The notes: generated by a model not told the origin, from the sequence alone. DNA of 64,000 nucleotides from an uncultured virus (IMG/VR IMGVR_UViG_3300043567_001092) (IMGVR_UViG_3300043567_001092); one strand, 5' to 3'; counted from the stretch's first letter, positions 5,128 through 60,877 are shown. Numbers and translations are program-made.

Positions 5128-6138
5128 CTACACTCCTTGTTTTAAACTTGGGCAATTTTCGTAAATTTTTCTTAATATTTGTTCTTTGTGATTTTGTAAC
5201 TGGTTCTCTTCAAAGAATCTATTAGAGAACTGACTAAAAGCTTTGCTAATACCATCTGATTCTTTAATATCAATAACTTTCATCTCGTCAGTATACTCTG
5301 TTTTAATTTTAACTGAATCTGGAAGTGTCTTAGATATTTTTTTAATAAAGTCTCTTGTACCTTTTAATTCTACGTAAGTTCTGTTTGATGGCGGCACATC
5401 TGGTATTTCTTGTCCTTCTTCAATAACAACTTTTGTAAATGGTTCAGATACGCTTGATGGTGTTGGAAAGAATTTTCTATTCCCAGAGCTGTACAATGCA
5501 GTTATTCCTTTGACTTCTCCAATATCAGATCTAGTTAAATGCCTAGTTGTTCCTACATAAAGTACTTTGTCAAATTCTTGAGATTTATGTATATGACCAG
5601 ATATAAATTTGATATCAGTTGGGTACTGTGAAAGATCAAATCCATGAGGTGCATAGAAACCATTCTCATACATACAACCTTGAAATTCAGTATGACAAAG
5701 GATTGTTTTGATTCCTTTGGAGTATGCCTCTAAAACTTTTTCTTTAAAAACGTCTTCTTTGCGAATATAACCAATCGCCCCTACTCCGTTTGCTATCTGT
5801 ATAACGTCTTCTTTAATTATATTTATTTGATCATCGTGGGCTCTCATAGCCGATGCTGTTCCATCTTGGTTCATATCGTGATTGCCTTCTAAAGCAAACA
5901 CTTTTACTGATTTGTTCTGGTTAAACTTATTAAATTGTTTTCGCCAAAAATTCATTACCTCTACTCTGGTAACTGCGAAATCGTTATATTGATCTCCCAT
6001 AAACACAACATGAACTTCAGATTCTTTGCTGAAATCATTGGCAATTCCAATAATCCAATCAATAATTTTGGATACTTCTTCAGTGTCCTCTTTTCTTACG
6101 TGCATGTCGCCTATAGGCAATATAACATAATTATCCAA
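5128..6138 (-). CDS. sbcD: SbcD/Mre11-like (T4 gp47-like) nuclease
   Basis: Metallophosphoesterase motifs GDMH, GDQY, GNHD, LCH, SGHIH; SbcC partner at 13848. Confidence 0.88.
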   Translation of the reverse strand: MDNYVILPIGDMHVRKEDTEEVSKIIDWIIGIANDFSKESEVHVVFMGDQYNDFAVTRVEVMNFWRKQFNKFNQNKSVKVFALEGNHDMNQDGTASAMRAHDDQINIIKEDVIQIANGVGAIGYIRKEDVFKEKVLEAYSKGIKTILCHTEFQGCMYENGFYAPHGFDLSQYPTDIKFISGHIHKSQEFDKVLYVGTTRHLTRSDIGEVKGITALYSSGNRKFFPTPSSVSEPFTKVVIEEGQEIPDVPPSNRTYVELKGTRDFIKKISKTLPDSVKIKTEYTDEMKVIDIKESDGISKAFSQFSNRFFEENQLQNHKEQILRKIYENCPSLKQGV

Positions 6139-6418
6139 TTTTATATCCTATTATTTCATTTTCTGGACATAAAACAAAGTTATTTTCTTCAAATGAAAAC
6201 AATGTCTTAGCCCATGGTTTTAAACCAGAATCTCCACGAATAATTACTTTGTCTCCTGGTTTTAAATCTGTCTCACCTAATTTATAGCACATAACAAGTT
6301 CACAGTCAATTAGATTGATACGTTGAGAGATTCTTACTAGACCTCCTGACGTATCCGACTCTATTTTTTTAAATTCTGGTTGCTTAATTGCTAATAAACC
6401 TTTATTTGTACCTAACAT
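6131..6418 (-). CDS. groES: GroES-like co-chaperonin
   Basis: 95 aa; mobile-loop-like TSGGLV, LKPGDKVII and FVLCPENEIIG follow the Cpn10 pattern (SAGGIV / VKVGDxVI / LIMxExDILA). Confidence 0.7.
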   Translation of the reverse strand: MLGTNKGLLAIKQPEFKKIESDTSGGLVRISQRINLIDCELVMCYKLGETDLKPGDKVIIRGDSGLKPWAKTLFSFEENNFVLCPENEIIGYKIG

Positions 6419-6426
6419 ATTGTCTC

Positions 6427-7425
6427 CTAAAACATTTCTTTAATATCGCCAATTTTTAAAAACAATACTTTTTGCTCTAGCGGCGTTAGTGTTTTTAAGA
6501 TTTTTAGTATTTTTAATTTTAAATCATTGTTTTCTATCTCATTTAACAAGTCTAAGCCACTTACTAACTTTTCGCCAAGTGTTAGATTGTTATCGTATTT
6601 TTCATCAATGCTACATACTTGATTTGCTGCTGCATCAATTAAAGATAGATCGTCTGCTGTTGTTCCTGCGAAACTTTCATTAACAAATGATTTTAAGTCT
6701 TCGCCAGAGATATCTGCATCCTTTAATTTTGCCTTCCTAGCTCTATATAGTATTCTTTTGTCTTTAGGCGGTAATTTGACCAAAGTCGCTGAATAATCTT
6801 CTGACATATTTAAAGTCATTCTGCCGATTGCAACAGATCTAAACACTGTTTTATAAGGAGGAACAAAATTATCTATGGCTTCTAATAAACCCCTTGAAGC
6901 ATCTTGTATGAGGTCCATATAATCTACGTGGTGTTCTGAGGTTTTAGACCAAAACAACTTAGCTCTATTAATAGCTAGCGGTAAATTAGTTTCGCAAAGG
7001 CTCTTTCTTAATGAAAGTATTTCTTCGTAAGTATTTTGAAGTTCTTTTTTATGAGGTCCTTCGTAGTTATCTAGGACCCATTTAACAAATAGATAGTTAA
7101 TTCTAAATCTGTGTAGTTTTTTGGCGTCTTTTGATAAAAGTATTGGAAACATCTTTTTAGAAAAAGTATCTTGTCTTTCTCTAAAATAAGGTCTTACAGA
7201 CAATTTGTTTTTCTTTACTTCCAATATATAGTATATAAAATCTTCGTATGTTTTTTCTCCGTGCGAAGTGGACAATAAAGTGGATTTAAATGTTCTTTCT
7301 AGTTTAAATAGTTTGTTAAGGTTCTCTTTTTGAGACTTTCCATTTAAACTATCGCTATCTTTTAGCGCAACATCTAAATCTGCTATAAATTTTTTAAAAA
7401 GTGTAGGCTGTTGTTTCTGTTTCAT
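6427..7425 (-). CDS. Sigma70-family RNA polymerase sigma factor lacking region 4.2
   Basis: Region 2: NLPLAINRAK...YMDLIQDASRGLLEAIDNF...FRSVA; region 3-like SIDEK...TLGE; region 4.1 LTPLEQKVLFLKIG then stop. Start moved from 7524 to ATG 7425, which removes the helicase overlap and follows a promoter motif. Confidence 0.8.
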   Translation of the reverse strand: MKQKQQPTLFKKFIADLDVALKDSDSLNGKSQKENLNKLFKLERTFKSTLLSTSHGEKTYEDFIYYILEVKKNKLSVRPYFRERQDTFSKKMFPILLSKDAKKLHRFRINYLFVKWVLDNYEGPHKKELQNTYEEILSLRKSLCETNLPLAINRAKLFWSKTSEHHVDYMDLIQDASRGLLEAIDNFVPPYKTVFRSVAIGRMTLNMSEDYSATLVKLPPKDKRILYRARKAKLKDADISGEDLKSFVNESFAGTTADDLSLIDAAANQVCSIDEKYDNNLTLGEKLVSGLDLLNEIENNDLKLKILKILKTLTPLEQKVLFLKIGDIKEMF

Positions 7426-7444
7426 AAACACACATACCACATTT

Positions 7445-8932
7445 TTATATCTCTTGTACGTCTCCCAGTTGTTCGTATATACCAATTCGCGTATCACAGT
7501 GCCTTTCCATTGATGGAGAGCCATTTACTTTGAAATCTACTACTATTACGTCTTCTTTTCCTGGTACGATCCTAGTGCCCCTGCCTATAGCTTGTTTTAT
7601 TTTGATTTCTGACATCCCACCCTGTAAATATATTAGACAGCCAGTTGGTCTCAAATCAACTCCAGTAGCAATTGCTGAGGTTCCTATTAATAGTTTTGTT
7701 TCTCCAGAATTGAATCTTTCTATAATAGCTTCATTATCAGGGTCCCAGTATTCTTTTGGCAAGATGTCTCTGAGTTTCGTTCCATCTGCATTTTCTCTAT
7801 TTGAAGCTCCGCCATGGGCAAACTCAAACGGTATTGTTATATAGTTTTTTAATGCAAGGAATTGGCCAAATTCTTCAATTAGTATTACAGTTGGTCTATT
7901 GGCTAAAGTTATAGCTTTATAAGCAAAATCTGCTGCTAGTTTGTTTACATTTGGATTTAAATACAGTTGATTTTGAGTTTCTTTATTTATATCCTTTGCG
8001 CCAGCAAACCCTTTTGATGGAACATTAAATACTTTAAAAAAAGGTCTTGCAAGATATTTTTCTTCTACTAGATCTTTAAAGTCTTTTCTATATACTACTG
8101 GTCCAGTGATTCCTTTTAGGACCATATCTGACCCGTCATTTCTCATTTGAGTTGCAGAAACAAAGAATCTGTATTGAGCATTTTTAAGCGCACCTAGGCA
8201 CACTTTTTCAAAAGTTTCGCTTGGTGTAGTATGGGCTTCGTCGGCTATAAACATTTCTGTTTTACTGAAAAACTCATATTCTTCTGTTCCTGGCTCAATT
8301 CTTGTTAACGCCTGACCTGTTGCTATAGTGAATAGTTTTTTAATTTCTTTCTTTCCGTCACCATATTTACCAACGAATTTTTTACCAAATAAGTGTACCA
8401 TTTCTTCGTATATTTGGTTTGTTATTGTTTTTGCTGGTGTCATTATAACCGTTTGAACTGGAAGTTCTTTGCAGAGAGTAAACAAACATAGAGTTTTTCC
8501 TGCTCCAGTTGGTAATTCTATTGCACCATGGCCAGTTTTGATTAAAGCATCGACTGCAGCTCTTTGATATGTTCTTGGTGGAAACTTAGGGGCATGTTCC
8601 CATGGGATTTGTCTTTTTGGTTCTGGCTTTAATGGAGCCTGTTCTAATTCCCATCCAAATATATTTTGCAAATCTTGCCAAAGACCAGAGTAGGTACATG
8701 GTAACCCATCTTTGTTATAAAATAGTAAAGATCTTGTTTGATTCTTTTTTAATTCTTCTATTCTAGATTCAAATGCTTCTGGATCTTTTTTCTTCCAAAA
8801 TATATTTTGTTTCATTTTTTGAAGTTGATAACCAACGCTTCTGTCTGTAAAAGACAAAAATCTTTTAACTTTATCGGAATCATCTGGGAGAATGATAACT
8901 GCTGGTGAATCGTATCTCATAATGTTGCTCAT
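7445..8932 (-). CDS. Superfamily 2 helicase (UvsW-like)
   Basis: YQ motif, PTGAGKT, DEAH, SAT, TGVD, QAIGRGTR. Confidence 0.9.
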   Translation of the reverse strand: MSNIMRYDSPAVIILPDDSDKVKRFLSFTDRSVGYQLQKMKQNIFWKKKDPEAFESRIEELKKNQTRSLLFYNKDGLPCTYSGLWQDLQNIFGWELEQAPLKPEPKRQIPWEHAPKFPPRTYQRAAVDALIKTGHGAIELPTGAGKTLCLFTLCKELPVQTVIMTPAKTITNQIYEEMVHLFGKKFVGKYGDGKKEIKKLFTIATGQALTRIEPGTEEYEFFSKTEMFIADEAHTTPSETFEKVCLGALKNAQYRFFVSATQMRNDGSDMVLKGITGPVVYRKDFKDLVEEKYLARPFFKVFNVPSKGFAGAKDINKETQNQLYLNPNVNKLAADFAYKAITLANRPTVILIEEFGQFLALKNYITIPFEFAHGGASNRENADGTKLRDILPKEYWDPDNEAIIERFNSGETKLLIGTSAIATGVDLRPTGCLIYLQGGMSEIKIKQAIGRGTRIVPGKEDVIVVDFKVNGSPSMERHCDTRIGIYEQLGDVQEI

Positions 8933-10455
8933 TTATTCTCCTGATCTTTATTATTAAGCAATGTTAAATTAACACTTTTTTCTGCTAATCTTTTAGCATT
9001 TTCTTTTAAAGCTATTGATTCTTTTTCCATCATTTCTTGAATATTACTTATAAGTAATTCTAAAGATTTAACTTCGGTTTTAGACATTTCTCTTTCTTTT
9101 TGTGTAGTTTCTTCTTTTACTATATGTAGAGAAGATTGCTTAGAGTTTCTCTTTTTCTCTATATCTTCTAACATTTTTTTATGAAATTCTAATGCTTCAG
9201 ATACATTTTCGTTTTCTGTGGAAATTCCTTCATCAAGAGGTTTGCCATTTAGTTTGTTAGTAACATTTTGTATTCTTTTGCGTTCATTTTCTATCCAAAG
9301 ATGTTTATTCGCAACTTCGGCTTTTATTAGAACTGGAAGTTTTTCTGTCAAAATATCATTTATAATAGATTCTGCATTTTCCCACAAAATAAACTTATTG
9401 CCAAAGAAGAATGAATCTGGACCAGGGAACCTTCTGGTATAACCAGACACTTGTCTTAATCCACTTGAGTCTAATTGCCAGAAGTTTTCTCCATCATATA
9501 CCTGCATTGGTATCCAATCGTCTTTTTTGTCATAATTTGCAGTTCTTTCTTCATTTTTGAACAATGGGGAATATTCGATGTTAAATGTTTTTTGATATTC
9601 ATTTTTAATGAATTCTTTAATTTTATCTATTTTTTCGTTTACTGTCATAGATGATACTGTGGTTTCAAGTTGTTCAATTCTGTTTTTAGATTGTACATCT
9701 TTATTTTTTGGAGATGTTGCAATTAATCTTTTAAGTACTTCTAGCTGTTTTTTACTGACACCGTTTCCAGATTTTAGTTGAGATATACACGTATCGACCA
9801 TACTTTTATGGAATTGTGACGGTTCTATTTCTTCTAATTCTGTTAATAATTTTGTATTTTCTGTTTCTTTTTCTGGCGCTTCTAATGTAGTTTTTGTGTC
9901 TAATATTGGAATTGTTTTTGTAGATGTCTTTTTTAAACCCTTTTCAATATAAGAAAGTCTTTCTAGTAGGATTGCATCCCTTTGTGCCGAAATGTCTAAA
10001 ATAGAGTTTAAATTTAATGCGTTTATAACACTATCATTAATTGTCATTACATACATTACTCGTTTTATTACATCGTGTCCTTGTTCTAATATTGGAAAAA
10101 CACCTTTTGTAATAGACATGAATGTATATCCCCAGTTAGGACCATCAAACACAACTTTTTTCTTAAATTTCTTTTTTACATTTTTATCGTTAAAGAAAAT
10201 GTCCATTGCAAGTTTTTTAGAGAAAAAGAAAGTAAATTTTTTTTGGGTAAGTGCTGCATTAAGTAGACTGGCAGTCAGGATAGAGTTTACCGAAGTACTT
10301 TTATATCCTCCCTTAAGGACTTCTACCATCATTTCATTTAATTCTTTGTTTTTAGGCAAATGAGTAGTAATATCGGTAAGTTTGCCAATTGATTCATTCC
10401 CTTTTTTATTAACTTTTTCTATTAACTTTGATAAATCATTGAGATCATTTTTCAT
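8929..10455 (-). CDS. Hypothetical Lys-rich protein next to candidate origin
   Basis: 508 aa, GGAG RBS, own TTGCAA-17-TATAAT promoter; no recognisable catalytic motif. Confidence 0.6.
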   Translation of the reverse strand: MKNDLNDLSKLIEKVNKKGNESIGKLTDITTHLPKNKELNEMMVEVLKGGYKSTSVNSILTASLLNAALTQKKFTFFFSKKLAMDIFFNDKNVKKKFKKKVVFDGPNWGYTFMSITKGVFPILEQGHDVIKRVMYVMTINDSVINALNLNSILDISAQRDAILLERLSYIEKGLKKTSTKTIPILDTKTTLEAPEKETENTKLLTELEEIEPSQFHKSMVDTCISQLKSGNGVSKKQLEVLKRLIATSPKNKDVQSKNRIEQLETTVSSMTVNEKIDKIKEFIKNEYQKTFNIEYSPLFKNEERTANYDKKDDWIPMQVYDGENFWQLDSSGLRQVSGYTRRFPGPDSFFFGNKFILWENAESIINDILTEKLPVLIKAEVANKHLWIENERKRIQNVTNKLNGKPLDEGISTENENVSEALEFHKKMLEDIEKKRNSKQSSLHIVKEETTQKEREMSKTEVKSLELLISNIQEMMEKESIALKENAKRLAEKSVNLTLLNNKDQENK

Positions 10456-10475
10456 TTTAGCTCCGATATACTAGA

Positions 10476-10504
10476 ATTATACCACATTATAAATAAATTT
10501 GCAA
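10476..10504 (-). promoter_or_regulatory. Sigma70-type promoter
   Basis: Minus strand TTGCAA-N17-TATAAT with TGTGG extended -10. Confidence 0.7.
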
Positions 10505-10524
10505 ATATTTAGAAAATTTTGAGC

Positions 10525-10574
10525 AACTTTTCAAAAGTTTTCAGAAGTTTTTAAAACTTTTCAGAACTTTTTTA
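10525..10574. repeat. Five tandem 10-bp direct repeats
   Basis: AACTTTTCAA AAGTTTTCAG AAGTTTTTAA AACTTTTCAG AACTTTTTTA. Confidence 0.85.
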
Positions 10575-10640
10575 GGTTCAAAACTGATTATTATTTAATA
10601 AAACTATGCATTTATAAAGGAATTTTAAAATAAAAACTCG

Positions 10641-10697
10641 GTATTGATATTGGTTTTGATATTGATAATGATAATGATATTGATAATGTATTGTATT
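10641..10697. repeat. Degenerate 6-bp tandem repeat (ATAWTG)n
   Basis: gtattg atattg gttttg atattg ataatg ataatg atattg ataatg tattg tatt. Confidence 0.85.
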
Positions 10698-10808
10698 AGA
10701 ATTTTTATTATAATATTATTTTTTTAAAACAGCCAAATCCTCAAATAAATTCAACAGCTCGTTCCGCCGCCGCCAGTTTTTGTAGTATATATCTTAGCAG
10801 GAGGTGTT

Positions 10809-12590
10809 ATGTCTTTATTTCAAGCATCAAAACCAAAATCGGCAGGAAAAGTTACGGTTCCATCCTCAAATCAATTATCTGAGGTAGTGTGTAAAACTCT
10901 TAATCATATGGCACAAATGGCAGGAGCAACTCTTGGTCCCGGCGGTAAACAAGTTTTGATTGAACGCGGTGAAATTGGCATGAAACCAATCTTAACAAAA
11001 GATGGTGTGTCTGTTATTAAATCCCTAGGGTATGATGGCGCGACTCAGCAATTAATCCTTGAGGCTGCTAGAGATGCTGCAATCAGAACTGCTACAGAGG
11101 CAGGAGATGGTACGACTACTGCTACTGTACTTTCTGCTGCAATTACAAATGCTACTGCCCATGTTGTTGCTAATAACCCAAAAGTGTCCCCACAAAAAAT
11201 AGTACGCGAATTACAAAAAATCGTCCCTGTGCTGATCAAGATGATTAGCGATCTTAAGATTGACGTTACTGGAGAGAATTACCAAGAAGTTCTGTTAAAA
11301 GTTGCCACTTTGTCGGCTAATGGTGATACTGAGTTATCTTCAAAAGTACTTGAAGGTTTAGATTTAGTTGGAGATGAAGGCGACCTCACAATAGTTGAAG
11401 GTACTGGAGAGAGCAGATACTCTATCAATAGAATTAACGGTTACACAGTAGATAGAGGTCTTGAGGAATCTTGCAGAAATCTAGCTCAGGGTTTTATTAA
11501 TGACAAATCTGGAACAATGGTAGTACTGGATAATCCGATCTTTATCCTCTATGATGGTGTTATTAATGATTTTGGTCAAATTTTTGATGGACTTAGTAAA
11601 TTAAATGCTACTTTGGAAGCTTCTGGTCGTCCAGATAGAAATGTAGTAGTAGTTGCTCATGGATTCGGCGAAATGGTATTAGGAGACCTTCACCATAACT
11701 GGAATCACCCGAAAGCTCCTCTTAAAGTTTACCCAATGCTAACTCCTGAAAAAGCAATTGCTAATTGGAGAACACAATTTCTTTATGATTTACAGGCATA
11801 CACAGGTGCAACTGTGTTCAATCCAGTTGATAGACCTGTAATAGATATTATACCAGAATCAGTTATTGAATCTAATAGAGCAACTCGCGTAGAAATATCT
11901 AGATTCAAATCAATGGTTTTTGCAAAAGAAGATGTTGATGCTGTAAGCATTCGCGTTGATGAGCTTAAATTTCAAAAAAATGCTCCAGAAAGCGAATATG
12001 AGCTTAATGACTTAAATGTTAGAATCGGTAAGTTAACATCTGGAATTGTTAGACTTGAAATATTTGGCCCTAGCTCTGGCGAAACTAGAGAGAAACGTGA
12101 TAGAGCTGAAGATGCTTGGATGGCATTAAAAGGCGCTACTAAATATGGAGCAGTTCCTGGTGGAGGGTATGTACTTGTAAGACTGGCTGCTGCATTACAA
12201 TTACAAGTAGATAAAATTCCACCGTCTGCTAAAAAATATGCTTATCAAATTCTTGCAGAAGCTTTATTAGAGCCAGTTAAATTATTATATAAAAATTATG
12301 GTTTTAATGATGAAGAAACTACTGAGCAAATATTTAAAATGTTAAATAATGACGATCAAGCATACGACATTTTAGAAGAAATGTGGGTTCCAAAAGAACA
12401 ATTATTAGATAGCGTTCCTGCTGTTAGCGAAGCGATCAGAAATAGTATTTCAATTGCTTCATTGCTCGGTACGTTAGGTGGCATAGTTGCATTTAAACGC
12501 GATTATGATTCTGATAAAGAAGAAGAAAGACTTATTCGCAATTTTGAAGCCTCTATTGGCGAACGTGGTTCTTTAGCTCAAGGAGAATAA
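10809..12590 (+). CDS. groEL: Group I chaperonin GroEL homolog
   Basis: TLGPGG, TKDGVSV, AGDGTTTATVL, SANGD, RAEDA, GAVPGGG, SIASLL; GGAGG RBS; no GGM tail. Confidence 0.95.
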   Translation: MSLFQASKPKSAGKVTVPSSNQLSEVVCKTLNHMAQMAGATLGPGGKQVLIERGEIGMKPILTKDGVSVIKSLGYDGATQQLILEAARDAAIRTATEAGDGTTTATVLSAAITNATAHVVANNPKVSPQKIVRELQKIVPVLIKMISDLKIDVTGENYQEVLLKVATLSANGDTELSSKVLEGLDLVGDEGDLTIVEGTGESRYSINRINGYTVDRGLEESCRNLAQGFINDKSGTMVVLDNPIFILYDGVINDFGQIFDGLSKLNATLEASGRPDRNVVVVAHGFGEMVLGDLHHNWNHPKAPLKVYPMLTPEKAIANWRTQFLYDLQAYTGATVFNPVDRPVIDIIPESVIESNRATRVEISRFKSMVFAKEDVDAVSIRVDELKFQKNAPESEYELNDLNVRIGKLTSGIVRLEIFGPSSGETREKRDRAEDAWMALKGATKYGAVPGGGYVLVRLAAALQLQVDKIPPSAKKYAYQILAEALLEPVKLLYKNYGFNDEETTEQIFKMLNNDDQAYDILEEMWVPKEQLLDSVPAVSEAIRNSISIASLLGTLGGIVAFKRDYDSDKEEERLIRNFEASIGERGSLAQGE

Positions 12591-12591
12591 A

Positions 12592-12867
12592 ATGCCTTGG
12601 TTTACTTACAAATGCAAAGAACATGGAGAGTTCAAGGCATCACTATCTAAAAGAGAGCAGACTCAAAAATGTCCAGAATGTGATAACACTTGTTATTCTG
12701 TGATAAAGTCTGCTTCTATATCTATAGTTGAAAGATTAGATAATGGGGCAATGGCAAGAACAGTTGAAAGATTACACAACATTGAAGATATTATGAACGA
12801 AAGAGCTGATAAACATAGTGCAGAGAATAGTAGCCCAATAGAGGAGTTGGAAAATGAGCAAAATTGA
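12592..12867 (+). CDS. FmdB-like zinc-ribbon protein
   Basis: MPWFTYKCKEHG...CPEC. Confidence 0.7.
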   Translation: MPWFTYKCKEHGEFKASLSKREQTQKCPECDNTCYSVIKSASISIVERLDNGAMARTVERLHNIEDIMNERADKHSAENSSPIEELENEQN

Positions 12868-13879
12868 TGTTGGTTTTGGCATACCGCTTTATATGCAACC
12901 ATATTGGGATGAATCCGGAGAATATTTTCCTCACGCACTAGATAGCGTATTTATCAATGAAGAGCTTAGCTATACTCATGGAGACATTGACGTATCTTTA
13001 GAGAATATAATTAGAATAACACACGAAATGGTCGGTAATGCTGTCACAGAAGGTTCTACTATAGTGGTAGGAAATGGCGCATCTCAAGTAATTTCTTCCG
13101 TAGGGTACGCTTCTAAAGCTTTGGGATATGATGATTTCAGCTTAAACGCACCGTTCTGGGGTAGATTAGAGTTTCTATTGACAGTTGGCCAAAAGGCGTA
13201 TGATTTTACAAATGCTAAACCAAGAAAAACTCCTAAAAAACCAATATTTGATTTTGTAACTAGACCAAATAATCCGGATTCAAGTATGAGAGGGGCGGAT
13301 GAATCCTTCTCGGTTGTTGACATGTGCTATAATTGGCCTCAGTACGTCCCTCAAGTAGAAAAAGGCGATTATGATGTTATGATTTTTAGCCTAGCGAAGG
13401 CTACAGGACATGCTGGAACAAGAATTGGCTGGGCAGTTGTAAAAGATCCAGAAGTTGCAGCAATAATGAAAGATTATATGGAGCTATCAACATGTGGAGT
13501 GTCGGTAGATTCTCAAAGAAAAGCTGATGGAGTCTTCACAAGAATCCTGTCTTTATCAAGATTCTTTAAATCTCCGTTTGATTACGCAAAAGAAGAGCTA
13601 TCATTAAGATGGGAAGTATTTAAAAATGGCGTAAAAGACAATACTGACTTTAAACTACTAAATCAACATGGTATGTTTGCATTTTGTGAATTGTCATCTA
13701 ATGATGAGCCTGTTGGTTTTATGGACAACAAATATGACTTAATAGTTACCCCAGGAAGAAATCTAGGATTGACAAGCGATTCAAATTGCTTTAGAATAAA
13801 TCTTGGATGTTCTGAAGAGAACTTTACCAAAATGATGGGGTCTTTACGTGCAAATAAACCTAGTATCACTGGAAATTGA
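12854..13879 (+). CDS. PLP-dependent aminotransferase, tryptophan aminotransferase (TAA1/TAR)/alliinase family
   Basis: HEMVGNAVTEGSTIVVGNGASQ, PNNPD, DMCYNWPQY, FSLAKATGHAGTRIGWAVVKD (PLP lysine), GVSVDSQ, FRINL. Confidence 0.85.
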   Translation: MSKIDVGFGIPLYMQPYWDESGEYFPHALDSVFINEELSYTHGDIDVSLENIIRITHEMVGNAVTEGSTIVVGNGASQVISSVGYASKALGYDDFSLNAPFWGRLEFLLTVGQKAYDFTNAKPRKTPKKPIFDFVTRPNNPDSSMRGADESFSVVDMCYNWPQYVPQVEKGDYDVMIFSLAKATGHAGTRIGWAVVKDPEVAAIMKDYMELSTCGVSVDSQRKADGVFTRILSLSRFFKSPFDYAKEELSLRWEVFKNGVKDNTDFKLLNQHGMFAFCELSSNDEPVGFMDNKYDLIVTPGRNLGLTSDSNCFRINLGCSEENFTKMMGSLRANKPSITGN

Positions 13880-15557
13880 AGGATTTAGAAGTTTTAGGCA
13901 ATATACAAAGATTGATTTTCCTAAAAACGATTCCTTAGTACTTATTTCAGGTAAATGGAAGGATACTGATGTTTCTTCCGGATCTGGAAAGTCTTCTATA
14001 TTAGAAGCCATTGCATTCTGTCTTGATATTTCAACAGCAAGTGCTACCTCATTAAAAAATTGGGATTCTAAAAAGATGCTAGTCAAACTCACCTTGTCAA
14101 AAGGTGATGATATTATACAAATAACTAGAGATCCAAAGCTTTCTATATCTGTCAATGGTGTTCCTTATGAAGGACTTGTAAAAGGCTCTAAGGAAAGATT
14201 GCAAGAACTATTAGGTGTTAATCCAGATATGCTTAAAACAATGACGTATAGAAAACAACGAGTTGCAGGAAAAATAATAAGATCAACAGATTCACAAATA
14301 AAAGAGTTTTTAACCCAAACCCTTGGTTTAGATGAAATAGAAAATTTTATAGAAGAAAATTCAAAGCTGATTAATACTACCTCTAGATCTTTAGATATCA
14401 TAAGAGCAAATTATGAGTCTGCAACAAAAAATTTATCAAGCAGCAATATATCAGATGAAGAAATTCAATCATTGAAAAACGGCGTTATTGAAGCCGAAAG
14501 TACTTTTGAAAAATATAAAGATGACACTGCTAACAAAAATTTAACTACGGAAATCAATAATTTAACAATTGAATATAAGAAAAGTATTGAAATAAAAAAC
14601 AATGTTGAAAAAGCAAAATATTCTAATGATAATATTAAAAAAACAATTATTAATTTAATAAATGAAATAGAACACCTTTCAAAATCATCTTGCCCAACAT
14701 GCCTTAGAGATTGGCAAGAATCCAAGCAATTGTTAGATATTAAAACAAAAGAAAAAGATGCTTTAATTTTAAAATTTCAAGATAATTTATCATATATCAA
14801 AGATTCAGAATCTGTAATTTCTAATTATTCCAAATTGGAATATAAAATAAATGAGTTAAATAAACAACTTGCGATGATATCAGCTCCAAAAAACATGGCG
14901 TACCAATCATTACTCAATGCTAAGTCAGCTTTATCTATGGGAATGTCAAAAAGAAACTCATATATAGAACTAACAAATAGAGTTTCAGAATTATTTAACG
15001 AAGGCAGAATCAAGCAGCAAGAGTTAGAAGTGTTAGAATCAACTAACAAGCTTCTTGGCAGAACTGGATTTTTAGGCAATATTTTTGATGAAATTTTAGC
15101 CGACATTCAAATAAGAACAAATGATATGCTTTCAAATTTTCCAAATGCAAGTCAATTTACGGTACAAATAAGCTCTACCAAAGAAGTTAAATCAAAGGGC
15201 ACCACAAAAAAAGAAATATCTATTACCATAAATAACAATGGTAACGAAATCGGAATAGATGACTTGTCAGGTGGTCAACAATCTGCTATAGAACTCTGCT
15301 CTGATTTAGCAGCCGCTGAGGTTATAAGAGCAAGATCTGGGTGCGGTTTAGGTTGGATATGCCTAGACGAAGTTATGGACGGCTTAGGCGCTGTTGAAAA
15401 AGAGGCTGCTGTAAATATGATAAGACAGCGAGTTAAGGGCCTAGTATTAATGATTGAGCATTCAACTGAGATTAAAGAATCGTTTAATGAAGTAATAGAA
15501 ATAGAGTTTTCCGGCAAAGAAAGCCGTTTAACTATAACAAATAATGTGGTATATTAG
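13848..15557 (+). CDS. sbcC: SbcC/Rad50-like (T4 gp46-like) SMC ATPase
   Basis: IEGFRSF, Walker A SGSGKSS, coiled coil with CPTC zinc hook, LSGGQ, LDE, IEH. Confidence 0.92.
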   Translation: MQINLVSLEIEGFRSFRQYTKIDFPKNDSLVLISGKWKDTDVSSGSGKSSILEAIAFCLDISTASATSLKNWDSKKMLVKLTLSKGDDIIQITRDPKLSISVNGVPYEGLVKGSKERLQELLGVNPDMLKTMTYRKQRVAGKIIRSTDSQIKEFLTQTLGLDEIENFIEENSKLINTTSRSLDIIRANYESATKNLSSSNISDEEIQSLKNGVIEAESTFEKYKDDTANKNLTTEINNLTIEYKKSIEIKNNVEKAKYSNDNIKKTIINLINEIEHLSKSSCPTCLRDWQESKQLLDIKTKEKDALILKFQDNLSYIKDSESVISNYSKLEYKINELNKQLAMISAPKNMAYQSLLNAKSALSMGMSKRNSYIELTNRVSELFNEGRIKQQELEVLESTNKLLGRTGFLGNIFDEILADIQIRTNDMLSNFPNASQFTVQISSTKEVKSKGTTKKEISITINNNGNEIGIDDLSGGQQSAIELCSDLAAAEVIRARSGCGLGWICLDEVMDGLGAVEKEAAVNMIRQRVKGLVLMIEHSTEIKESFNEVIEIEFSGKESRLTITNNVVY

Positions 15558-15560
15558 GTT

Positions 15561-15992
15561 ATGCAAAATAATAATATTGAATTCAAAGACTATATCCCAG
15601 AAGACGAAATGAGAAACTATTTCTCAATTATCGAAAAAGATAAAGATGTCTCCGTATGCCTTTTAGCAAGTGCAGATGGGGCTGGTTCTTCTGTTTATAT
15701 CGAAACTACAGCAGATAATGAATATATTGAAGGTGTGATTAAAGTGTTCTTAAATGCAACAGATATAAGACGATACGGCAAAACGGTTGCAATAGATGAG
15801 CATGTTGAAAACGATAGAGTTAGAAAATGGGAAATGCCGTACAGTTCATTCCTATCATACATTAAAGAAATCAATGAAAAGCGTATTGCTAAAAACCAAA
15901 AAGGTATTAAAGCAGTAGCAACTATAATCTTAAATAATAAATTAGTTGACATAGATGTAATTTATACACCAGAAAAAAATTTTAGTAACTAA
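15561..15992 (+). CDS. Hypothetical protein
   Basis: 143 aa ORF directly after AATGTGGTATATT motif. Confidence 0.6.
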   Translation: MQNNNIEFKDYIPEDEMRNYFSIIEKDKDVSVCLLASADGAGSSVYIETTADNEYIEGVIKVFLNATDIRRYGKTVAIDEHVENDRVRKWEMPYSSFLSYIKEINEKRIAKNQKGIKAVATIILNNKLVDIDVIYTPEKNFSN

Positions 15993-16003
15993 AAGGAGGA
16001 CTT

Positions 16004-16186
16004 TTGGAAGAATTAAAAATTTTAAGAAGCCAATTTCAAGAACAACTAGATGAAACAGTTAAAAGTATTCAAAATTTAAATCAAAAATTGCAATCCGAAG
16101 GGGAAAAAGTCAACCAACTTAGAGGCGCTTTGTACGCATTGGATGTATTAGCTTCAAAACTTGAACAAGAAAAGAAAGAAGGTTAA
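16004..16186 (+). CDS. Small coiled-coil protein
   Basis: AGGAGG RBS, TTG start, heptad pattern. Confidence 0.6.
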   Translation: MEELKILRSQFQEQLDETVKSIQNLNQKLQSEGEKVNQLRGALYALDVLASKLEQEKKEG

Positions 16187-16188
16187 TT

Positions 16189-16485
16189 ATGGCTAAAAAA
16201 GCAAAAAAGGGCCCAAAAGATTTATACGATAAGGTTAAGGATATTGATCCATATTTTGCGGAAGAAGCATATTCTGCAACAGACGAAAAATTAAATGAAA
16301 AAATGGCTGGTTTTAGCAAAACATTAACTGAGATTGAAGAAGCTAGAGATATGGACGAATCTCTTAAACAATTAAGAGAACAATTAAAAGTTGCTGGTCA
16401 AACATATTCAGAGCCAATTAAGGGCATTAAACTTAAGCGCAAATTGGTATACAAGATTCTTAAAGAGAGAGGCAAAGTACCTTGA
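16189..16485 (+). CDS. Hypothetical coiled-coil protein
   Basis: 98 aa, in operon. Confidence 0.6.
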   Translation: MAKKAKKGPKDLYDKVKDIDPYFAEEAYSATDEKLNEKMAGFSKTLTEIEEARDMDESLKQLREQLKVAGQTYSEPIKGIKLKRKLVYKILKERGKVP

Positions 16486-17075
16486 AAATTTTAGGGTTAG
16501 ATATGGCAACAAAAACTGGGTTTGCTATCATAGAAGATGGCAAACTCACGCACTATGGCCTTCTCAAAGAAGAGAAGGTCAATTTGCCAGATTTGGCTGA
16601 AGACTTCTCATTCCTTAAAAGAGCTATTGGGGCTACGAAACAAATATCTGATCTGATAAAAGAACACAAACCTGATAAAATTTTTATAGAACAAACAAAT
16701 ACTGGCAAATTCAGACAAAGCCAAAAACAACTAGAGATGCTACATTGTTGTTTTTTGCAAGAAATATTAAAGCTTGGCGAACATTATCCAAAAAACGTAT
16801 TCTATGTAGATACCAGCAAATGGAGATCTGTATTAAAAATACGCCTATCTAAAGAACAAAGAGAACACAATAAAAAGGTTAAAAATAGAGTAGCTAAAGG
16901 CAAAATCACAAGCAAGCACTTAGCGGTCCTGTGGGTAAATCAAACTTATGGACTATCGCTTAAACAAAAAGATCACGATATCTGCGATGCAATATGCCTA
17001 TCTTCATTTGGGTTATTAAAATCAAAAGAAGTAAAAAAAGATATAGATTTTGAAGAAATCCTCAAAATCAATTAA
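16482..17075 (+). CDS. ruvC: RuvC-like Holliday junction resolvase
   Basis: ILGLDMATKTG, IFIEQ, HDICDAI acidic residues. Confidence 0.85.
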   Translation: MKILGLDMATKTGFAIIEDGKLTHYGLLKEEKVNLPDLAEDFSFLKRAIGATKQISDLIKEHKPDKIFIEQTNTGKFRQSQKQLEMLHCCFLQEILKLGEHYPKNVFYVDTSKWRSVLKIRLSKEQREHNKKVKNRVAKGKITSKHLAVLWVNQTYGLSLKQKDHDICDAICLSSFGLLKSKEVKKDIDFEEILKIN

Positions 17076-17095
17076 AAAATATAGTATATATCAGT

Positions 17096-17926
17096 ATGAA
17101 TAATTATAACAACTATAACAATAATTTTCTTGATAATGACAGTCAATACACTTCTTCTTCAAATGAAGTGTTTGAAGAAATTTATGAAGAATACGAAGAA
17201 GAAGTTGCAGAAGCAGAGGCCCAAGCGGTTGTCTTATCAGAAGCTTTAAAAAGAATTCAACAAGCAAAGCTGTACGAAGCCTTATTAAATCATCAATTAT
17301 TTTCACCAGGCTCTGCAAGTCCAGAAATTATCAAAATTGTATCTAAAGAATTCAAGGACTTCATCCTGTCTAGACTTGAGAACCTTCTTGGTATTAAATC
17401 TGATAAAACTCAAATTTCATCACAACAAGTATTTAATGATCAAGAAATTAATGCTTTAAAAGCAATTTCTAAAAGATTGATTGAAAAAGATAGCTTGCAA
17501 CAGGTACAAACACAGCAAGTTCAGACAGCTCAGACTCAAACATCTGCTCAAGCAATTTTAACTAATCAAGTTCCAGTAATTACACCAGTGCAGGCACAAC
17601 CGGAAGCTATTTCCGAAGTTCAACAAACTGAACCTAAAAGAGTTATTAAGCGTGTGGTTAAGAAAGTTTCTAAACAACCACAACAAGAGTATGTAGAATC
17701 TGAAAAAACTAGAACACCAAGAGCTAAAACTCAAAATATTGGCGCAGTATCTGGACAAGATCTTGGACAAGTATCTTCTCCAGAAAGACCACCAATGAAA
17801 ATGCCGTCAGCATCTGAAATGGATGCAATAAATGCTAGACAGGCAGATTTCAATTCGTCTAGGTCAAGTGCTACTAATTTAGCTGGATCAAATTTAACAA
17901 GTTTAGTATCAAAATTAACAAAATAA
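17096..17926 (+). CDS. Hypothetical protein, acidic N-terminus and Gln-rich low-complexity region
   Basis: 276 aa ORF. Confidence 0.6.
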   Translation: MNNYNNYNNNFLDNDSQYTSSSNEVFEEIYEEYEEEVAEAEAQAVVLSEALKRIQQAKLYEALLNHQLFSPGSASPEIIKIVSKEFKDFILSRLENLLGIKSDKTQISSQQVFNDQEINALKAISKRLIEKDSLQQVQTQQVQTAQTQTSAQAILTNQVPVITPVQAQPEAISEVQQTEPKRVIKRVVKKVSKQPQQEYVESEKTRTPRAKTQNIGAVSGQDLGQVSSPERPPMKMPSASEMDAINARQADFNSSRSSATNLAGSNLTSLVSKLTK

Positions 17927-17938
17927 CAAGGAGACCCT

Positions 17939-18580
17939 ATGAGTACATTACAAAAATTAGAAGATGCGTTCGCGAAAATTAACGAATTACAAACAAAAAT
18001 TACTCAACTTGAGCAAGAAAATGGACAAACAAAACAAGCTACTCAAAATATTATTAATGCAATTAACTCTATCGTAGAAGGAGTTAACGGTAAAAATAGA
18101 GAATTATCTGAGATGGGAAATGCAACCATTAACAGATTAATGGGATTAGAGCAAGCTCATGCTGCTATCTCAAAAACAATTTCTGCTGTAGTGTCAGAAT
18201 TGTCTGATTCTGGAAATTTAGATCAAAATTCAGTTATGACAAGACTTAGAAAATCTGACGAGGCTGCTGATAAATCTAGAATTGATCAAATGTTGCAATT
18301 AGGAGTTATCGCTGAATCAAATACAGTTAATTCTGACTCTTTAATCACTGTTAGCCAAACTTTTACACCAGAAGGAAAAGAAGCTACAGTTATTGCTGAA
18401 TACAGATCTTATGAACTATCTAGCGAATTATTAGACGAAGCTGCAAGAGAGAAATATGTTGGTAAAAACGTTGGCGATGTAGTAGAAATTGATGTAGATG
18501 GCGGTAAGTTATCAACTACAATTATTGGTTCATATAGCCTTGTAAATCAAGAAAAAACAAGCGAAACAGTAGGCGCCTAA
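17939..18580 (+). CDS. Coiled-coil protein with possible GreA-C/FKBP-like C-terminal domain
   Basis: AAGGAG RBS; N-terminal heptads; C-terminal YVGKNVGDVVEIDVDGGKLSTTII. Confidence 0.45.
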   Translation: MSTLQKLEDAFAKINELQTKITQLEQENGQTKQATQNIINAINSIVEGVNGKNRELSEMGNATINRLMGLEQAHAAISKTISAVVSELSDSGNLDQNSVMTRLRKSDEAADKSRIDQMLQLGVIAESNTVNSDSLITVSQTFTPEGKEATVIAEYRSYELSSELLDEAAREKYVGKNVGDVVEIDVDGGKLSTTIIGSYSLVNQEKTSETVGA

Positions 18581-18597
18581 TTAGATCGGAGGTTCCT

Positions 18598-18963
18598 ATG
18601 GGTCGGAAACCTAACGGCGGAAGAACCGAAAGAATCAGCAGAAGTAAGGATAAGTCGGGCGGCGATGACAAGATTAGAAAATTAAAAATTGAAATCGACG
18701 CCCTTAAAAGAGAGAATTTACAACTAAGAAAGCTTCTAAATAAGACAGAAAATGAAATGGCTCAGTATATTAATCGTTTAGAAGCAAGTAACGATCCTCA
18801 AGCTAACGATGAAGTGGATGATAATATTAAGGGCGATGAACAACATTGTGAAGATTGCGGCAAAGGTTTAATGATTAAGACAACCGAAATAATCATTAGA
18901 GACTCTGTTAAAAAATTTTATACATGTAATGTCTGTGGCCACGGAAAGGTAATTAAAGAATAA
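18598..18963 (+). CDS. Coiled-coil plus zinc-ribbon protein
   Basis: GGAGG RBS; CEDCG...CNVCG. Confidence 0.65.
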   Translation: MGRKPNGGRTERISRSKDKSGGDDKIRKLKIEIDALKRENLQLRKLLNKTENEMAQYINRLEASNDPQANDEVDDNIKGDEQHCEDCGKGLMIKTTEIIIRDSVKKFYTCNVCGHGKVIKE

Positions 18964-19335
18964 ATGTTTTTCTTTGGAGAGAATTCTGAACATTTAAAGG
19001 CAGTAGTCGTGCTGGAGACCTTGAAAGAGGATTTAGCAAGAAGTACGCTATTTCTCTCCAAAGAAGAAGTTTTGATACAAAAAACAAAGTCTTTAATATC
19101 ATTCCTAACAGCAGCATTAGATCATTTGAAACATGAAGCTCAAATAGTTAGCATGAGAGAATATCAAAAAATGAGATATGAGCTAGTCGAAGAGCTTCAA
19201 AGAATGGAACGAATTAAAGAAAGGTCCTATTTCTATAAGCAGCAGATAGTCGACCTGACTGAAAGAATTGATAGACAACGACTACTTATTAGTACCTTAA
19301 AATCTAAGGTTTTGGAGTTTAAACGTGATAGATAA
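18964..19335 (+). CDS. Hypothetical coiled-coil protein
   Basis: 123 aa, abuts upstream stop. Confidence 0.55.
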   Translation: MFFFGENSEHLKAVVVLETLKEDLARSTLFLSKEEVLIQKTKSLISFLTAALDHLKHEAQIVSMREYQKMRYELVEELQRMERIKERSYFYKQQIVDLTERIDRQRLLISTLKSKVLEFKRDR

Positions 19336-19528
19336 AAAAAATGATGTCGATTACATAAATTCACCTAAATACTCCAATTCTTTAAGTCTTTTCTTGAAAG
19401 ACAACCCAAATGGTGTAAAAGATAAAGTTATATGCAGATTACTTGATATTAATCAAGATCAGTTAGAAGACATTTTTAAATCTGCAATGAGCAAATTACG
19501 TCAAAAAATCGTAAATACAAATAAATAA
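19325..19528 (+). CDS. Stand-alone sigma region-4-like HTH protein
   Basis: GGAG + GTG start; VICRLLDINQDQLEDIFKSAMSKLR parallels sigma70 [24 protein letters not shown]. Confidence 0.55.
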   Translation: MIDKKNDVDYINSPKYSNSLSLFLKDNPNGVKDKVICRLLDINQDQLEDIFKSAMSKLRQKIVNTNK

Positions 19529-43035: not shown

Positions 43036-43404
43036 TTAAATCTTGATAATCTTGTTGATTATGATTGTTCCTCTTAAATCTGGGATATTAAAAGTAGTCG
43101 TTCCATTTCCGTATCCGTAGTATGTACCTATGGCTGAAAAAAGCGAAGAGTATGTAGTTCTAGAAATTTCTTGTCCTGCGCAAATTAAAAAACCAGATGG
43201 TGCAGTTGAGCCTGCAAAATCAAGTAATGTTCCTGATGGTAGCGTATTTCCGCGCTCTCCTGGAGTAATCCATTGCCCATCTTCATAAAGTTTAAATTTA
43301 TTTTCAATTGAATTATAGTAAATATCTCCATCAATTGCAGTCGATGGTGGAGAAGCCTGTGGACGTAAATTTAAGCCGTTCTTAACAACAAGAAAATTGC
43401 GCAT
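43036..43404 (-). CDS. Minimal tail-collar protein with shared N-terminal module
   Basis: GDIYYN module fused to collar (PSGTLLDFAG...GFLICAGQ...SRTTYSSLF...FNIPDLRG). Confidence 0.75.
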   Translation of the reverse strand: MRNFLVVKNGLNLRPQASPPSTAIDGDIYYNSIENKFKLYEDGQWITPGERGNTLPSGTLLDFAGSTAPSGFLICAGQEISRTTYSSLFSAIGTYYGYGNGTTTFNIPDLRGTIIINKIIKI

Positions 43405-43462: not shown

Positions 43463-43472
43463 AGATTAGGCT
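43463..43472 (-). promoter_or_regulatory. Putative late promoter AGCCTAATCT
   Basis: Same 10-mer at 48604-48613 and 60797-60806; variants at 52335-52344 and 2228-2235; all upstream of virion genes. Confidence 0.65.
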
Positions 43473-48558: not shown

Positions 48559-48613
48559 CTTTGATTCCTACTATCCTCAAAAATTAATATTCTGTTGTAG
48601 ATTAGATTAGGCT

Positions 48614-50833: not shown

Positions 50834-52276
50834 TTAAATTAAAAACCAGTTAGCCCCGTCAGAGACAAGGGTAATATTTTGATATTGTGTTGTAATAACT
50901 TTGCTAGTAGCGCCATCAATTGTTTGTGCAGCAACAGCAGAAACAGTGATTGCGTTTGCAGTAGCGTCTGTTTTTTTGATGTCTAATTTTTTACCAGTGT
51001 AGCCTACAGCAGTTGGTAAAGTAATAGTAATCGCATTAGCAGCGCCAGAAGCTAAGATAACTCCGTTAGATGCAGTAGCTGTGTAAGTAGCAGCAGTTAC
51101 AGTATCAACAGCAACATTTGAACTTGCGCCAGCAACAGCAGAATCTACATAAGCAGTAGTAGCTTTTCCAGCAACAGCAGCAGTAATAGCAGCATCACGT
51201 GCAGAAGCTTCAGCAGCTACAGCAGTAGTGATTTCACTAAAAGCAGCATTAACAGCAATTTGACGAGAAGAAACTTCAGCATCAACGAGGTTGTAAGTAT
51301 ATGTATGGGCAGTGTTAATAGCATAAGCGCCCATTTCATCAACATAAGTTTTAACAATATATGAAGATGGAACTTTTGCGATTGATGGACTAGGGCCCCC
51401 AGTTAAAGTAAAGGCAACATTGTCTAAATAAGATAAAGGCATTTTAGAACTAGCTAAGCTAGTAATAGCATTATTTAAATTAGTGTCAGCAGCTTCAAAC
51501 GCAGCAACAACTTCGCTCAATGAATCAAGAGAAGTAGGATCAATGTTAGAGAGAACATTGTCGATTTGGCTTTGTAAGCTAGCATCAGCAGCATCTACAT
51601 AAGCAGTAGTAGCTTTACCAGCAACAGCAGCGTCTGCATAAGCTTCAGTAGCTTTTCCAGCAACAGCAGCGTCTACATAAGCTTTAACAGCTTTTTGAGA
51701 AGCAACCTTAACATCTGAATTAGCAACAAAAGTACCATCAGTGTCTAAATAAGAAAGTGGCATTTGAGCAACATCAGAAACATTGCTTAAACTAACCATA
51801 GCTTTAGTTAATGCAGGCATTTGAGTTGATTCAAGTTTACCATCAGCATCTAAAGTAGCAATACCAAGAGCGATACCTTTTTCTGAAGAATCAACTTTAG
51901 CAGCTAAACCTGGAACAGTTGGGGCACTAGCAGTTCCGCCTAAATCACCAGCTAATTGGATTAATCCAAGTGCAGATGCAGTCGCTGGAGAAGCACTGCT
52001 TCCGCCACCGCTAGCTTGACCTGTGTAAGCTGTAGTTTGTTCAGAACCATCTGGGAATACTAGAGCGCCTTGTGCAGTGAAAACACTACCGCTAGAAGAA
52101 GAACTTCCGGCTAACTCTACCCATTGGTTTATTTTGTAAATTTTGACTTTACCATCTGTTGAATCATAATATATATCCCCATTAACTGGTTCAGTTGGGG
52201 CACTTGATTGTGGTTTTAATACTAAGCCTTTATTTAAATAAAGACTTGAACTAATACCAAGAAAACGACGTGACAT
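50834..52276 (-). CDS. Fibre protein (shared N-module, coiled stalk, C-terminal DGxxW domain)
   Basis: GDIYYD module; DPTSLDSLSEV; ITITLP...IKKTD...DGANWFLI. Confidence 0.75.
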   Translation of the reverse strand: MSRRFLGISSSLYLNKGLVLKPQSSAPTEPVNGDIYYDSTDGKVKIYKINQWVELAGSSSSSGSVFTAQGALVFPDGSEQTTAYTGQASGGGSSASPATASALGLIQLAGDLGGTASAPTVPGLAAKVDSSEKGIALGIATLDADGKLESTQMPALTKAMVSLSNVSDVAQMPLSYLDTDGTFVANSDVKVASQKAVKAYVDAAVAGKATEAYADAAVAGKATTAYVDAADASLQSQIDNVLSNIDPTSLDSLSEVVAAFEAADTNLNNAITSLASSKMPLSYLDNVAFTLTGGPSPSIAKVPSSYIVKTYVDEMGAYAINTAHTYTYNLVDAEVSSRQIAVNAAFSEITTAVAAEASARDAAITAAVAGKATTAYVDSAVAGASSNVAVDTVTAATYTATASNGVILASGAANAITITLPTAVGYTGKKLDIKKTDATANAITVSAVAAQTIDGATSKVITTQYQNITLVSDGANWFLI

Positions 52277-52368
52277 TTTATATCTCCTGTTTCATCGTAT
52301 GTTAATATCTGCGCAGTAAAATACTACGCAGTTTAGATTAAGCTAATCTTAACCTGTTTTGTAACTAT

Positions 52369-60744: not shown

Positions 60745-60877
60745 GGTTTTTCCTTTTTTTTTAAGGGGTTTGGTGTATAGAAACTATACACGTAAAAGAT
60801 TAGGCTTTGGCCCAATTGTTAGGATTACCTCCAAACTATAGGCCAAAGTATTGATTTTATTATATTTTTTATGGGTA

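Follow-up and report, generated by a model that had tools for sequence, protein, structure and literature searches.

Late promoters of bacteriophage T4 consist of a -10-type element only, with no -35 element, and late transcription in this phage is activated by the gp45 sliding clamp. The T4 protein gp33 is described as binding the tip of the beta flap without recognizing DNA, as "a sigma4 mimic" that together with gp55 constitutes "a split sigma" (PMC2988020). Other divided specificity factors are outlined in bioRxiv 10.64898/2026.10.01.756105, which presents SigO-RsoA of Bacillus subtilis and Sig7-Sig8 of Tn916 as sigma factors split between regions 2 and 4 that read both -10 and -35, as well as the late-gene specificity factor of Bacillus phage SPO1, which is made of two proteins, gp34 and gp33. 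Split sigmas are known from few systems, and none that we found, mostly in sources represented by their listings, is cut between regions 4.1 and 4.2 with a recognizable 4.2 homolog encoded elsewhere. Here we describe a candidate for such an arrangement in a 64,000-nucleotide stretch of DNA from an uncultured virus (IMG/VR IMGVR_UViG_3300043567_001092), hereafter the window, where a sigma70-family protein ends at the border between regions 4.1 and 4.2, and a 67-amino-acid (aa) protein resembling the missing piece is encoded 12 kb away. Our best reading is that the two form a naturally split sigma70-family factor conserved in a phage lineage of approximately 100-170 kb genomes that includes Myxococcus phage Mx1.

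The candidate large subunit, 332 aa, is encoded at 6427 to 7425 on the minus strand and combines a helical N-terminal part, specific to the family, with regions 2 and 3 and both helices of region 4.1. A sequence-only reading of this DNA had placed a sigma gene at these coordinates; the open reading frame (ORF) stands, the strand is corrected to minus, and the longest ORF extends over 6427-7524 (365 aa), with the homolog alignment beginning at the ATG at 7425, 20 nucleotides (nt) beyond the stop of the upstream helicase gene. PHROG 351, "RNA polymerase sigma factor," matches the 332-aa protein with an E-value of 1.2e-11, and the sole Pfam match is Sigma70_r2 at 16.8 bits, under the cutoff of 24. 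A profile built from 30 homologs finds RpoD structures in the PDB (best E 2.5e-8; E. coli RpoD 5e-8) and aligns to E. coli sigma70 residues 367-564, with ...LTAREAKVLRMRFG as the last aligned residues. The AlphaFold2 model has a predicted local distance difference test (pLDDT) score of 89.7 and final helices at residues 290-312 and 315-325, and Foldseek retrieves sigma A, B, and S chains with this model at probability 1.00 and E-values down to 6e-6. The protein thus has region 2 and the overall fold of the sigma70 family and lacks the region 4.2 helix-turn-helix (HTH) that reads the -35 element.

The C-terminus reads ...LKTLTPLEQKVLFLKIGDIKEMF / ...LTPLEQKVLFLKIGDIKEMF, ending 6 residues beyond the glycine equivalent to sigma70 G564. 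As had been noticed from the sequence, the ribosome-binding site of the next gene follows directly, the stop codon TAG sitting within TAGGAG and the next ATG lying 5 nt on, so that no frame can continue the sigma and there is no room for a 4.2 HTH. This end point is a family trait rather than an error. A homolog search yielded at least 150 proteins (clusters) at E<=1e-3, of which 120, ranging from 237 to 368 aa, were listed; 118 were aligned, the two shortest (237 and 292 aa) being omitted. The column equivalent to G564 is glycine in 111 of the 118, and every one of the 118 has only 1-21 residues after it (median 5), whereas sigma70 has 49. No fused form longer than 368 aa appears among the 120 listed homologs, and neither these nor Mx1 has a full-length sigma. 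The truncation is also kept between phages of 33% and 55% G+C content (GC). When searched for in six frames with Pfam Sigma70_r4, a canonical region 4 scores over the cutoff in 13 of 14 control genomes and in none of 5 phage records, 4 of which have a completeness of 96% or more. A sequencing or assembly error, a frameshift, or a pseudogene was rejected as an explanation, and we give it practically no chance, given that the same end recurs in 118/118 homologs and Mx1 and that the ribosome-binding site of the following gene includes the stop codon. Residues E317, K319, and G326 (sigma70 E555, K557, and G564) are invariant or nearly so in the 118 sequences, as would be expected if the residues of region 4.1 still pack against an HTH. 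Four homologs (P0099, P0103, P0105, and P0108) carry a 14-residue tail beyond the conserved glycine, [ILF]T[KR]D[DE].LC..L..[KE], that resembles the start of the first HTH helix, so the break point may differ slightly between lineages.

The candidate small subunit is encoded at 19325 to 19528 on the plus strand, starts with GTG, and combines an N-terminal motif conserved in the family with a short helix and an HTH of the sigma-4.2 type, the recognition helix of which is acidic. A word-indexed search with the 67-aa protein returned just 3 close relatives, while a profile of 15 homologs harvested by synteny, run against 1.84 billion representatives, gave 477 clusters (defined at 50% identity) at E<=1e-3, 257 of which reach E<=1e-10. 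Among the 150 best-scoring of these 477 clusters, nearly all are free-standing proteins with lengths of 64-120 aa; the exceptions are two of 181 and 218 aa with N-terminal extensions that are not sigma-like. No longer protein (182-2000 aa) carrying the domain emerged from a search with the family alignment, which is weak evidence. Across 147 members, the commonest Pfam match at E<=1 is Sigma70_r4 (26/147, best E 6.8e-5), followed by HTH_69 (24), GerE (7), and PhyR_sigma-like (6), and Sigma70_r4 (PF04545) does not exceed its curated cutoff for the small ORF. "Sigma factor" is likewise the commonest PHROG description (8/147), and no PHROG described as a late-transcription coactivator is among the 16 families that members match at E<=0.01. 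Profile comparison with hhalign, against the C-terminal 80 residues of E. coli RpoD, RpoS, RpoH, and FliA, pairs residues 30-66 of the 147-sequence profile with sigma70 D570-V606 (probability 75%, E 2.4e-5), which bears out the gap-free match of 30 residues to the missing region 4.2 proposed earlier. ESM Atlas neighbors include viral clusters of 74-79 aa in which 83% and 63% of members bear Sigma70_r4, and searching the PDB with the family profile returns the NarL HTH (E 0.0019), region 4 of WhiG (E 0.016), and FliA (E 0.05), along with ComA, sigma28, and RpoE. The AlphaFold2 model (pLDDT 89.1) has three helices, at residues 20-26, 33-40, and 44-66. Fold and profile are thus sigma4-like, and the small protein is, judged by these comparisons, a remote member of the superfamily of sigma 4.2 and LuxR-type HTHs, of the sigma-4.2 type.

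What sets this HTH apart from an ordinary region 4.2 is the recognition helix, where the basic and polar residues that read DNA (R584, R586, R588, and Q589 in sigma70) are not retained. The window protein has Q44, D45, Q46, E48, and D49 at the positions of sigma70 R584, E585, R586, R588, and Q589, and this acidic replacement, first seen in the single sequence, holds across the family, with acid fractions of 0.37, 0.65, 0.76, and 0.61 at the R584, E585, R586, and R588 positions. With the positions of R584, R586, and R588 mostly glutamate, the domain probably anchors without reading DNA. The best-conserved part of the family is an N-terminal motif, [KR]I..[DE].DF[IV]..P[KR][YF].NSL, that has no counterpart in sigma; D9, S19, and G30 are conserved in 95%, 96%, and 97% of members, respectively.

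The pair was modeled with a complex predictor, which received the small protein with an alignment of 147 rows and the sigma with one of 118 rows; because the sigma was given at full length, the interface was not presupposed. The model places the small protein on the 4.1 helices with ipSAE values of 0.64, 0.62, and 0.64, while the three controls were all 0.00; of 157 solved complexes, 116 reach the ipSAE mark applied, as do 2 of 215 mismatched pairs. The pLDDT of the partner is at least 73, and at least 58% of contacts agree between runs. On the sigma, the confident interface is limited to residues 302-330, that is, the two 4.1 helices; on the small protein, it includes N-terminal residues 5-8 and 11, the short helix and loop at 20-31, and the HTH helices at 33-40 and 47-65. 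The tightest pairs bring sigma V320 and L323 (sigma70 V558 and M561) together with I36, L40, L47, I50, and A54 of the small protein, which hhalign equates with sigma70 V576, F580, I587, I590, and A594. As modeled, these contacts correspond to the hydrophobic core of an intact domain 4.

The same modeled interface would serve a protein that binds sigma as a regulator, whether as an anti-sigma or as a factor that sets timing; by covering the 4.1 helices it would prevent or postpone formation of the holoenzyme, with a logic similar to that of AsiA on sigma70 region 4. An acidic surface would repel DNA in this case as well, and the small gene does lie in a different operon from the sigma. But in both fold and profile the small protein corresponds to the missing piece of sigma and not to known anti-sigma folds, the small ORF is universal in near-complete genomes (5/5), and with no other source of region 4 in these genomes the sigma could not complete a flap-binding domain. 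We therefore regard such a regulator as quite unlikely and continue with the split sigma as the preferred interpretation.

Both halves of this putative factor are also present in a cultured phage. Among 50,697 phage records, the only relative of the window sigma is in Myxococcus phage Mx1 (35.7% identity, E 2e-40). The annotated Mx1 protein (WNM70309) ends ...LSLFEQKLLAMKGVVL at the same point as the window sigma and overlaps the next gene, and the gene order helicase-sigma-...-SbcD-like is that of the window. Directly upstream of the Mx1 DNA polymerase III alpha gene is an 80-aa homolog of the small ORF (32% identity, E 8e-4), which has no coding sequence feature in the public annotation (L002:3959-4201, corresponding to OR576727.2 at ~157455-157697, complement). 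Since Mx1 is cultured and carries both genes, the proposal of a split sigma is directly testable there.

A sigma with a domain 4 that does not read DNA should be served by promoters that lack a -35 element, and a candidate of this kind precedes the structural genes. The 10-mer AGCCTAATCT occurs in the window as 3 exact copies and 1 with one mismatch, all on the minus strand, in intergenic gaps 45-58 nt ahead of tail or structural genes, and two of them after terminator-like hairpins. The exact copies, all candidate late promoter elements, are at 43463 to 43472 (58 nt upstream of a tail-fiber-like gene at 43036-43404), at 48604 to 48613 (right after a hairpin and T-run, 45 nt upstream of a 1663-aa ORF at 43567-48558), and at 60797 to 60806 (after a hairpin, 52 nt upstream of a 1730-aa ORF at 55552-60744); the variant AGCTTAATCT is at 52335 to 52344, 58 nt upstream of a 480-aa ORF at 50834-52276. 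An 11-bp form of the motif upstream of structural genes is AGCCTAATCTT. Five relatives whose sigmas are 47-53% identical to that of the window, with genomes of 31-54% GC, contain 5, 11, 5, 6, and 7 exact copies of AGCCTAATCT, on one strand in each, with 0 for a reversed-pattern control. A phage-encoded reader best explains a motif whose sequence stays identical when the base composition of the hosts varies this widely.

Alignment of 34 sites with the exact 10-mer from the five genomes shows conservation of the 10-mer, of a T right after it (85%), and of an A 7 nt past the motif (71%), which is plausible as the transcription start site. Between -60 and -1, information content in these sites is nowhere above 0.34 bit, so a -35 block is not seen. 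A Shine-Dalgarno sequence with a start codon follows within 80 nt downstream in 27 of the 34, compared with 5/34 for the upstream flank and 4/34 for the reverse complement as controls. Of 13 records, 12 contain the degenerate form ARCYTAATMTT; the dominant strand accounts for 74 copies and the opposite strand for 2, while reversed controls give 13. More distant relatives have the variants ...TAATATT (G011 and G006) and AACTTAATCTT (G007 and G012).

These sites also bear on a further alternative, that the rebuilt domain 4 reads DNA after all, either non-canonically or at an element that escaped detection, in which case the sigma would be split but otherwise ordinary. In its favor, K57 and R59 (sigma70 K597 and R599) are basic in 78-88% of members and position 38 is K or R in 73%, and the motif search covered sites with the exact 10-mer only. 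Yet the flat stretch upstream of the 34 sites and the prevalence of Glu or Asp at the equivalents of R584, R586, and R588 make a DNA-reading domain 4 very unlikely.

Taken at full length, the mechanism that we propose for the split sigma is as follows. The 332-aa subunit would supply regions 2 and 3 and the two 4.1 helices, and the small protein, according to the complex model, would pack in trans on these helices to rebuild a domain-4-like module. This module would hold the sigma on the core enzyme via the beta flap with no contact to -35 DNA, leaving promoter choice to regions 2 and 3, which would read AGCCTAATCTT as a -10 and extended -10 element, and the resulting holoenzyme would transcribe the late genes. 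AGCCTAATCTT lies at the place expected of a -10 and extended -10 element, and its -35-less, single-element form matches the architecture that a sigma with a DNA-blind domain 4 would require. The sequence-only reading had offered either a two-part sigma or a non-DNA-binding sigma4 mimic acting at -10-only promoters; the evidence supports this proposal and fits the two combined. We hold the complete scheme, in which two polypeptides form a sigma for -10-only late promoters and its rebuilt domain 4 is an anchor that does not read DNA, to be probable, with appreciable reservation.

The reservation comes from a number of observations that weigh against the split sigma. Starting with the small protein, the window sequence taken alone matches no Pfam family at E<=1, and the hhalign probability for the family is 75% rather than above 95% and covers residues 30-66 only. 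With the model of the small protein, Foldseek finds no match in the PDB at E<=0.001. An exhaustive structural search is non-discriminating, with a best Z of 3.7, and sigma4 chains (3hug, 5fgm, 2h27, 6ono, and 1rp3) and LuxR-type chains (4ldz and 7vim, root mean square deviation 1.8-1.9 A over 39-41 residues) appear at Z 2.6-3.1 amid unrelated helical proteins. The 67-aa protein is not acidic overall, its net charge being approximately +3 by count, and its most conserved part, residues 1-29, has no sigma counterpart, so the pair does not represent a clean cut of an ancestral gene. The complex model is a prediction from alignments built in this analysis, and since intact sigma4 has been solved many times, its passing score may reflect likeness to the sigma4 fold and shows compatibility rather than binding. 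On the promoter side, the phage sigma is the obvious candidate for the reader of AGCCTAATCTT, a link that we infer, and Mx1 has 0 matches to ARCYTAATMTT, no over-represented 9-mer in a motif hunt, and just three GCCTAATCT sites, all on one strand; the candidate promoter sites in Mx1 are GGCCTAATCTT. Co-occurrence, a check that the earlier reading had proposed, is seen in 14 of 20 viral contigs bearing the sigma, including 5 of 5 that are at least 90% complete, with the 6 misses all being fragments of 13-43 kb; this is necessary for a two-part factor and weak as evidence for it, because core genes of one lineage co-occur anyway.

Gene position counts against the pair as well. The two genes are 12 kb apart in divergent operons, and the tight linkage of the small gene is to polymerase III alpha and not to the sigma: the N-terminus of the polymerase (F[KR]QL.N.H.H) begins between -5 and +89 nt from the stop of the small ORF in 13 of 14 loci, with overlap in 2. 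In the window, the 67-aa gene ends 59 nt ahead of a DNA polymerase III alpha gene of 1246 aa. The sole exception among the 14 is L026 (G002:C1:137120-140305), in which another gene lies between the small ORF and polymerase III alpha.

Alternatively, the truncated sigma may act alone at extended -10 promoters, and the 67-aa protein may be an unrelated HTH of the replication module that regulates the operon of the polymerase or assists polymerase III alpha as an accessory protein. In favor of a lone sigma, sigma70 without region 4.2 initiates in vitro at extended -10 promoters, the small gene is located inside the replication operon, on the opposite strand from the sigma, and the best PDB sequence match of the small-ORF profile is the LuxR-type DNA-binding domain of NarL. 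Against a lone sigma, the complex model puts the small protein specifically on the 4.1 helices with controls at zero, an acidic recognition helix is ill-suited to a DNA-binding regulator, and the conserved C-terminal 4.1 helices would be left without a packing partner. Per-member matches are also led by sigma families and not by LuxR (Sigma70_r4 26 versus GerE 7, with PHROG behaving likewise). On this balance, we consider it unlikely that the sigma works alone, and retain the split sigma as the better account.

Laboratory truncations of sigma70 before region 4.2 resemble the window sigma in that extended -10 promoters are usable without the -35-reading HTH, and differ in being artificial and partnerless, whereas here a truncation of natural origin is conserved together with a 4.2-like protein. 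The closest system in function would be T4 gp55/gp33, by functional analogy. In both, promoter recognition and a flap-binding module (flap binding being presumed for the window pair) are divided between two proteins, the partner on the flap side leaves DNA unread (again presumed here), and the late promoters (candidate ones in the window) have an element of the -10 type only. The position of the small gene among replication genes further recalls the link between replication and late transcription in T4, and an attractive reading, on this analogy, is that late transcription in these phages is coupled to the expression or activity of the replication module. The two systems differ in that gp55 is a minimal region-2 protein and the large piece here is a nearly complete sigma with regions 2, 3, and 4.1; the cut here falls within domain 4, and homology to 4.2 is detectable in the small piece, which is modeled as binding the large piece directly.

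As in SigO-RsoA and Sig7-Sig8, two separately encoded proteins would jointly supply sigma functions and associate with RNA polymerase, but there the small protein supplies region 2 and the large one region 4, while here region 2 is in the large protein and the small one aligns to region 4.2, in a presumably non-reading form; the genes of those systems are also adjacent, as against 12 kb between the present two. SPO1 gp33/gp34 is similar by description only, as a late-gene factor of a phage that consists of two proteins. In literature retrieved by full-text search on Mx1, on split or two-subunit sigmas, and on phage sigmas without region 4, represented mostly at listing level, the present arrangement is not described, and the single Mx1 paper listed is a 2018 review (PMC6070905).

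If the split sigma is real, it would show how a T4-like combination of a sigma and a flap-binding coactivator could arise from an ordinary sigma. It would also explain a conserved class of -10-only promoters in a widespread and mostly uncultured phage lineage (477 clusters of the small subunit and at least 150 of the sigma), and it would offer a natural two-piece sigma for synthetic biology. A bolder version takes the family as a living intermediate between an ordinary sigma and the gp55/gp33 type, in which a cut within domain 4 has released a DNA-blind 4.2 piece from the sigma, and this piece has become translationally coupled to the replicative polymerase. Activity of the -35-less late promoters would then have to await expression of the replication module, and the small subunit might touch the replisome as gp33 touches the T4 clamp. 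This evolutionary extension is speculative, and we rate it as rather unlikely in its entirety.

A second promoter-like motif in the window probably belongs to a different class. TGTGGTATW occurs 8 times versus 0.84 expected, a count reached in 0 of 100 shuffles, with every copy co-oriented with the local genes: on the minus strand at 2266, 4788, and 10478, and on the plus strand at 15545, 23343, 29241, 30995, and 39789. The copy at 10478 to 10486 on the minus strand is TGTGGTATA, of the extended -10 type, in the context TGTGGTATAAT, 23 nt upstream of a 508-aa ORF that is the first gene of the leftward operon with the helicase and sigma, and it likely drives expression of the sigma itself, with the host holoenzyme as the presumed enzyme. 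Some copies are just 8-24 nt from start codons, so their leaders would be very short or absent. Clear enrichment is confined to the phage of the window, represented by the 157.6-kb IMG/VR record G001 (CheckV 98% complete), which shares 100% of sampled 31-letter words with the window and has 15 copies versus 6 of a reversed-pattern control; seven relatives total 23 versus 8. TGTGGTATW was rejected as the promoter of the phage sigma, since its clear enrichment is limited to this one phage and it precedes the operon of the sigma itself, and we read it as a likely host-type extended -10 class. At L055 (G010:C1:119347-119516), AGCCTAATCTT is followed 20 nt later by TGTGGTATAAT ahead of the same gene, and the two classes of promoter may be arranged in tandem there.

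The window is phage DNA with a GC of 31-45%. The divergent transcription units of the sigma and 67-aa genes both start from a 353-bp gap at 10456-10808. The leftward unit consists, in order, of the 508-aa ORF, helicase, sigma, a 95-aa ORF, an SbcD-like gene, and the large terminase; the rightward unit consists of GroEL-like, SbcC-like, and RuvC-like genes, several small ORFs, the 67-aa ORF, polymerase III alpha, recombinase, primase, and a DnaB-like helicase. Two tandem repeats are present in the gap, a 10/20-bp unit AACTTTTCAA with approximately 4.7 copies at 10508-10572 and the hexamer TATTGA with 9.7 copies at 10642-10697, and the gap is a candidate regulatory or origin region. The 508-aa ORF (8929-10455) shows a weak match (E 0.023) between its residues 197-290 and the C-terminal portion of the "RNA polymerase sigma factor" family PHROG 1025. 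The 95-aa ORF directly after the sigma gene (6131-6418) looks GroES-like by eye and matched no family in Pfam or PHROG, and a GroEL-like chaperonin gene is present at 10809-12590 (PHROG 5725, E 1e-78). In the structural region, the 1663-aa and 1730-aa ORFs, each with AGCCTAATCT ahead of it, have no PHROG match at E<=1e-5. An unusual phage enzyme is encoded by a 341-aa ORF at 12854-13879, which matches Alliinase_C (E 1e-46) as well as aminotransferase class I/II.

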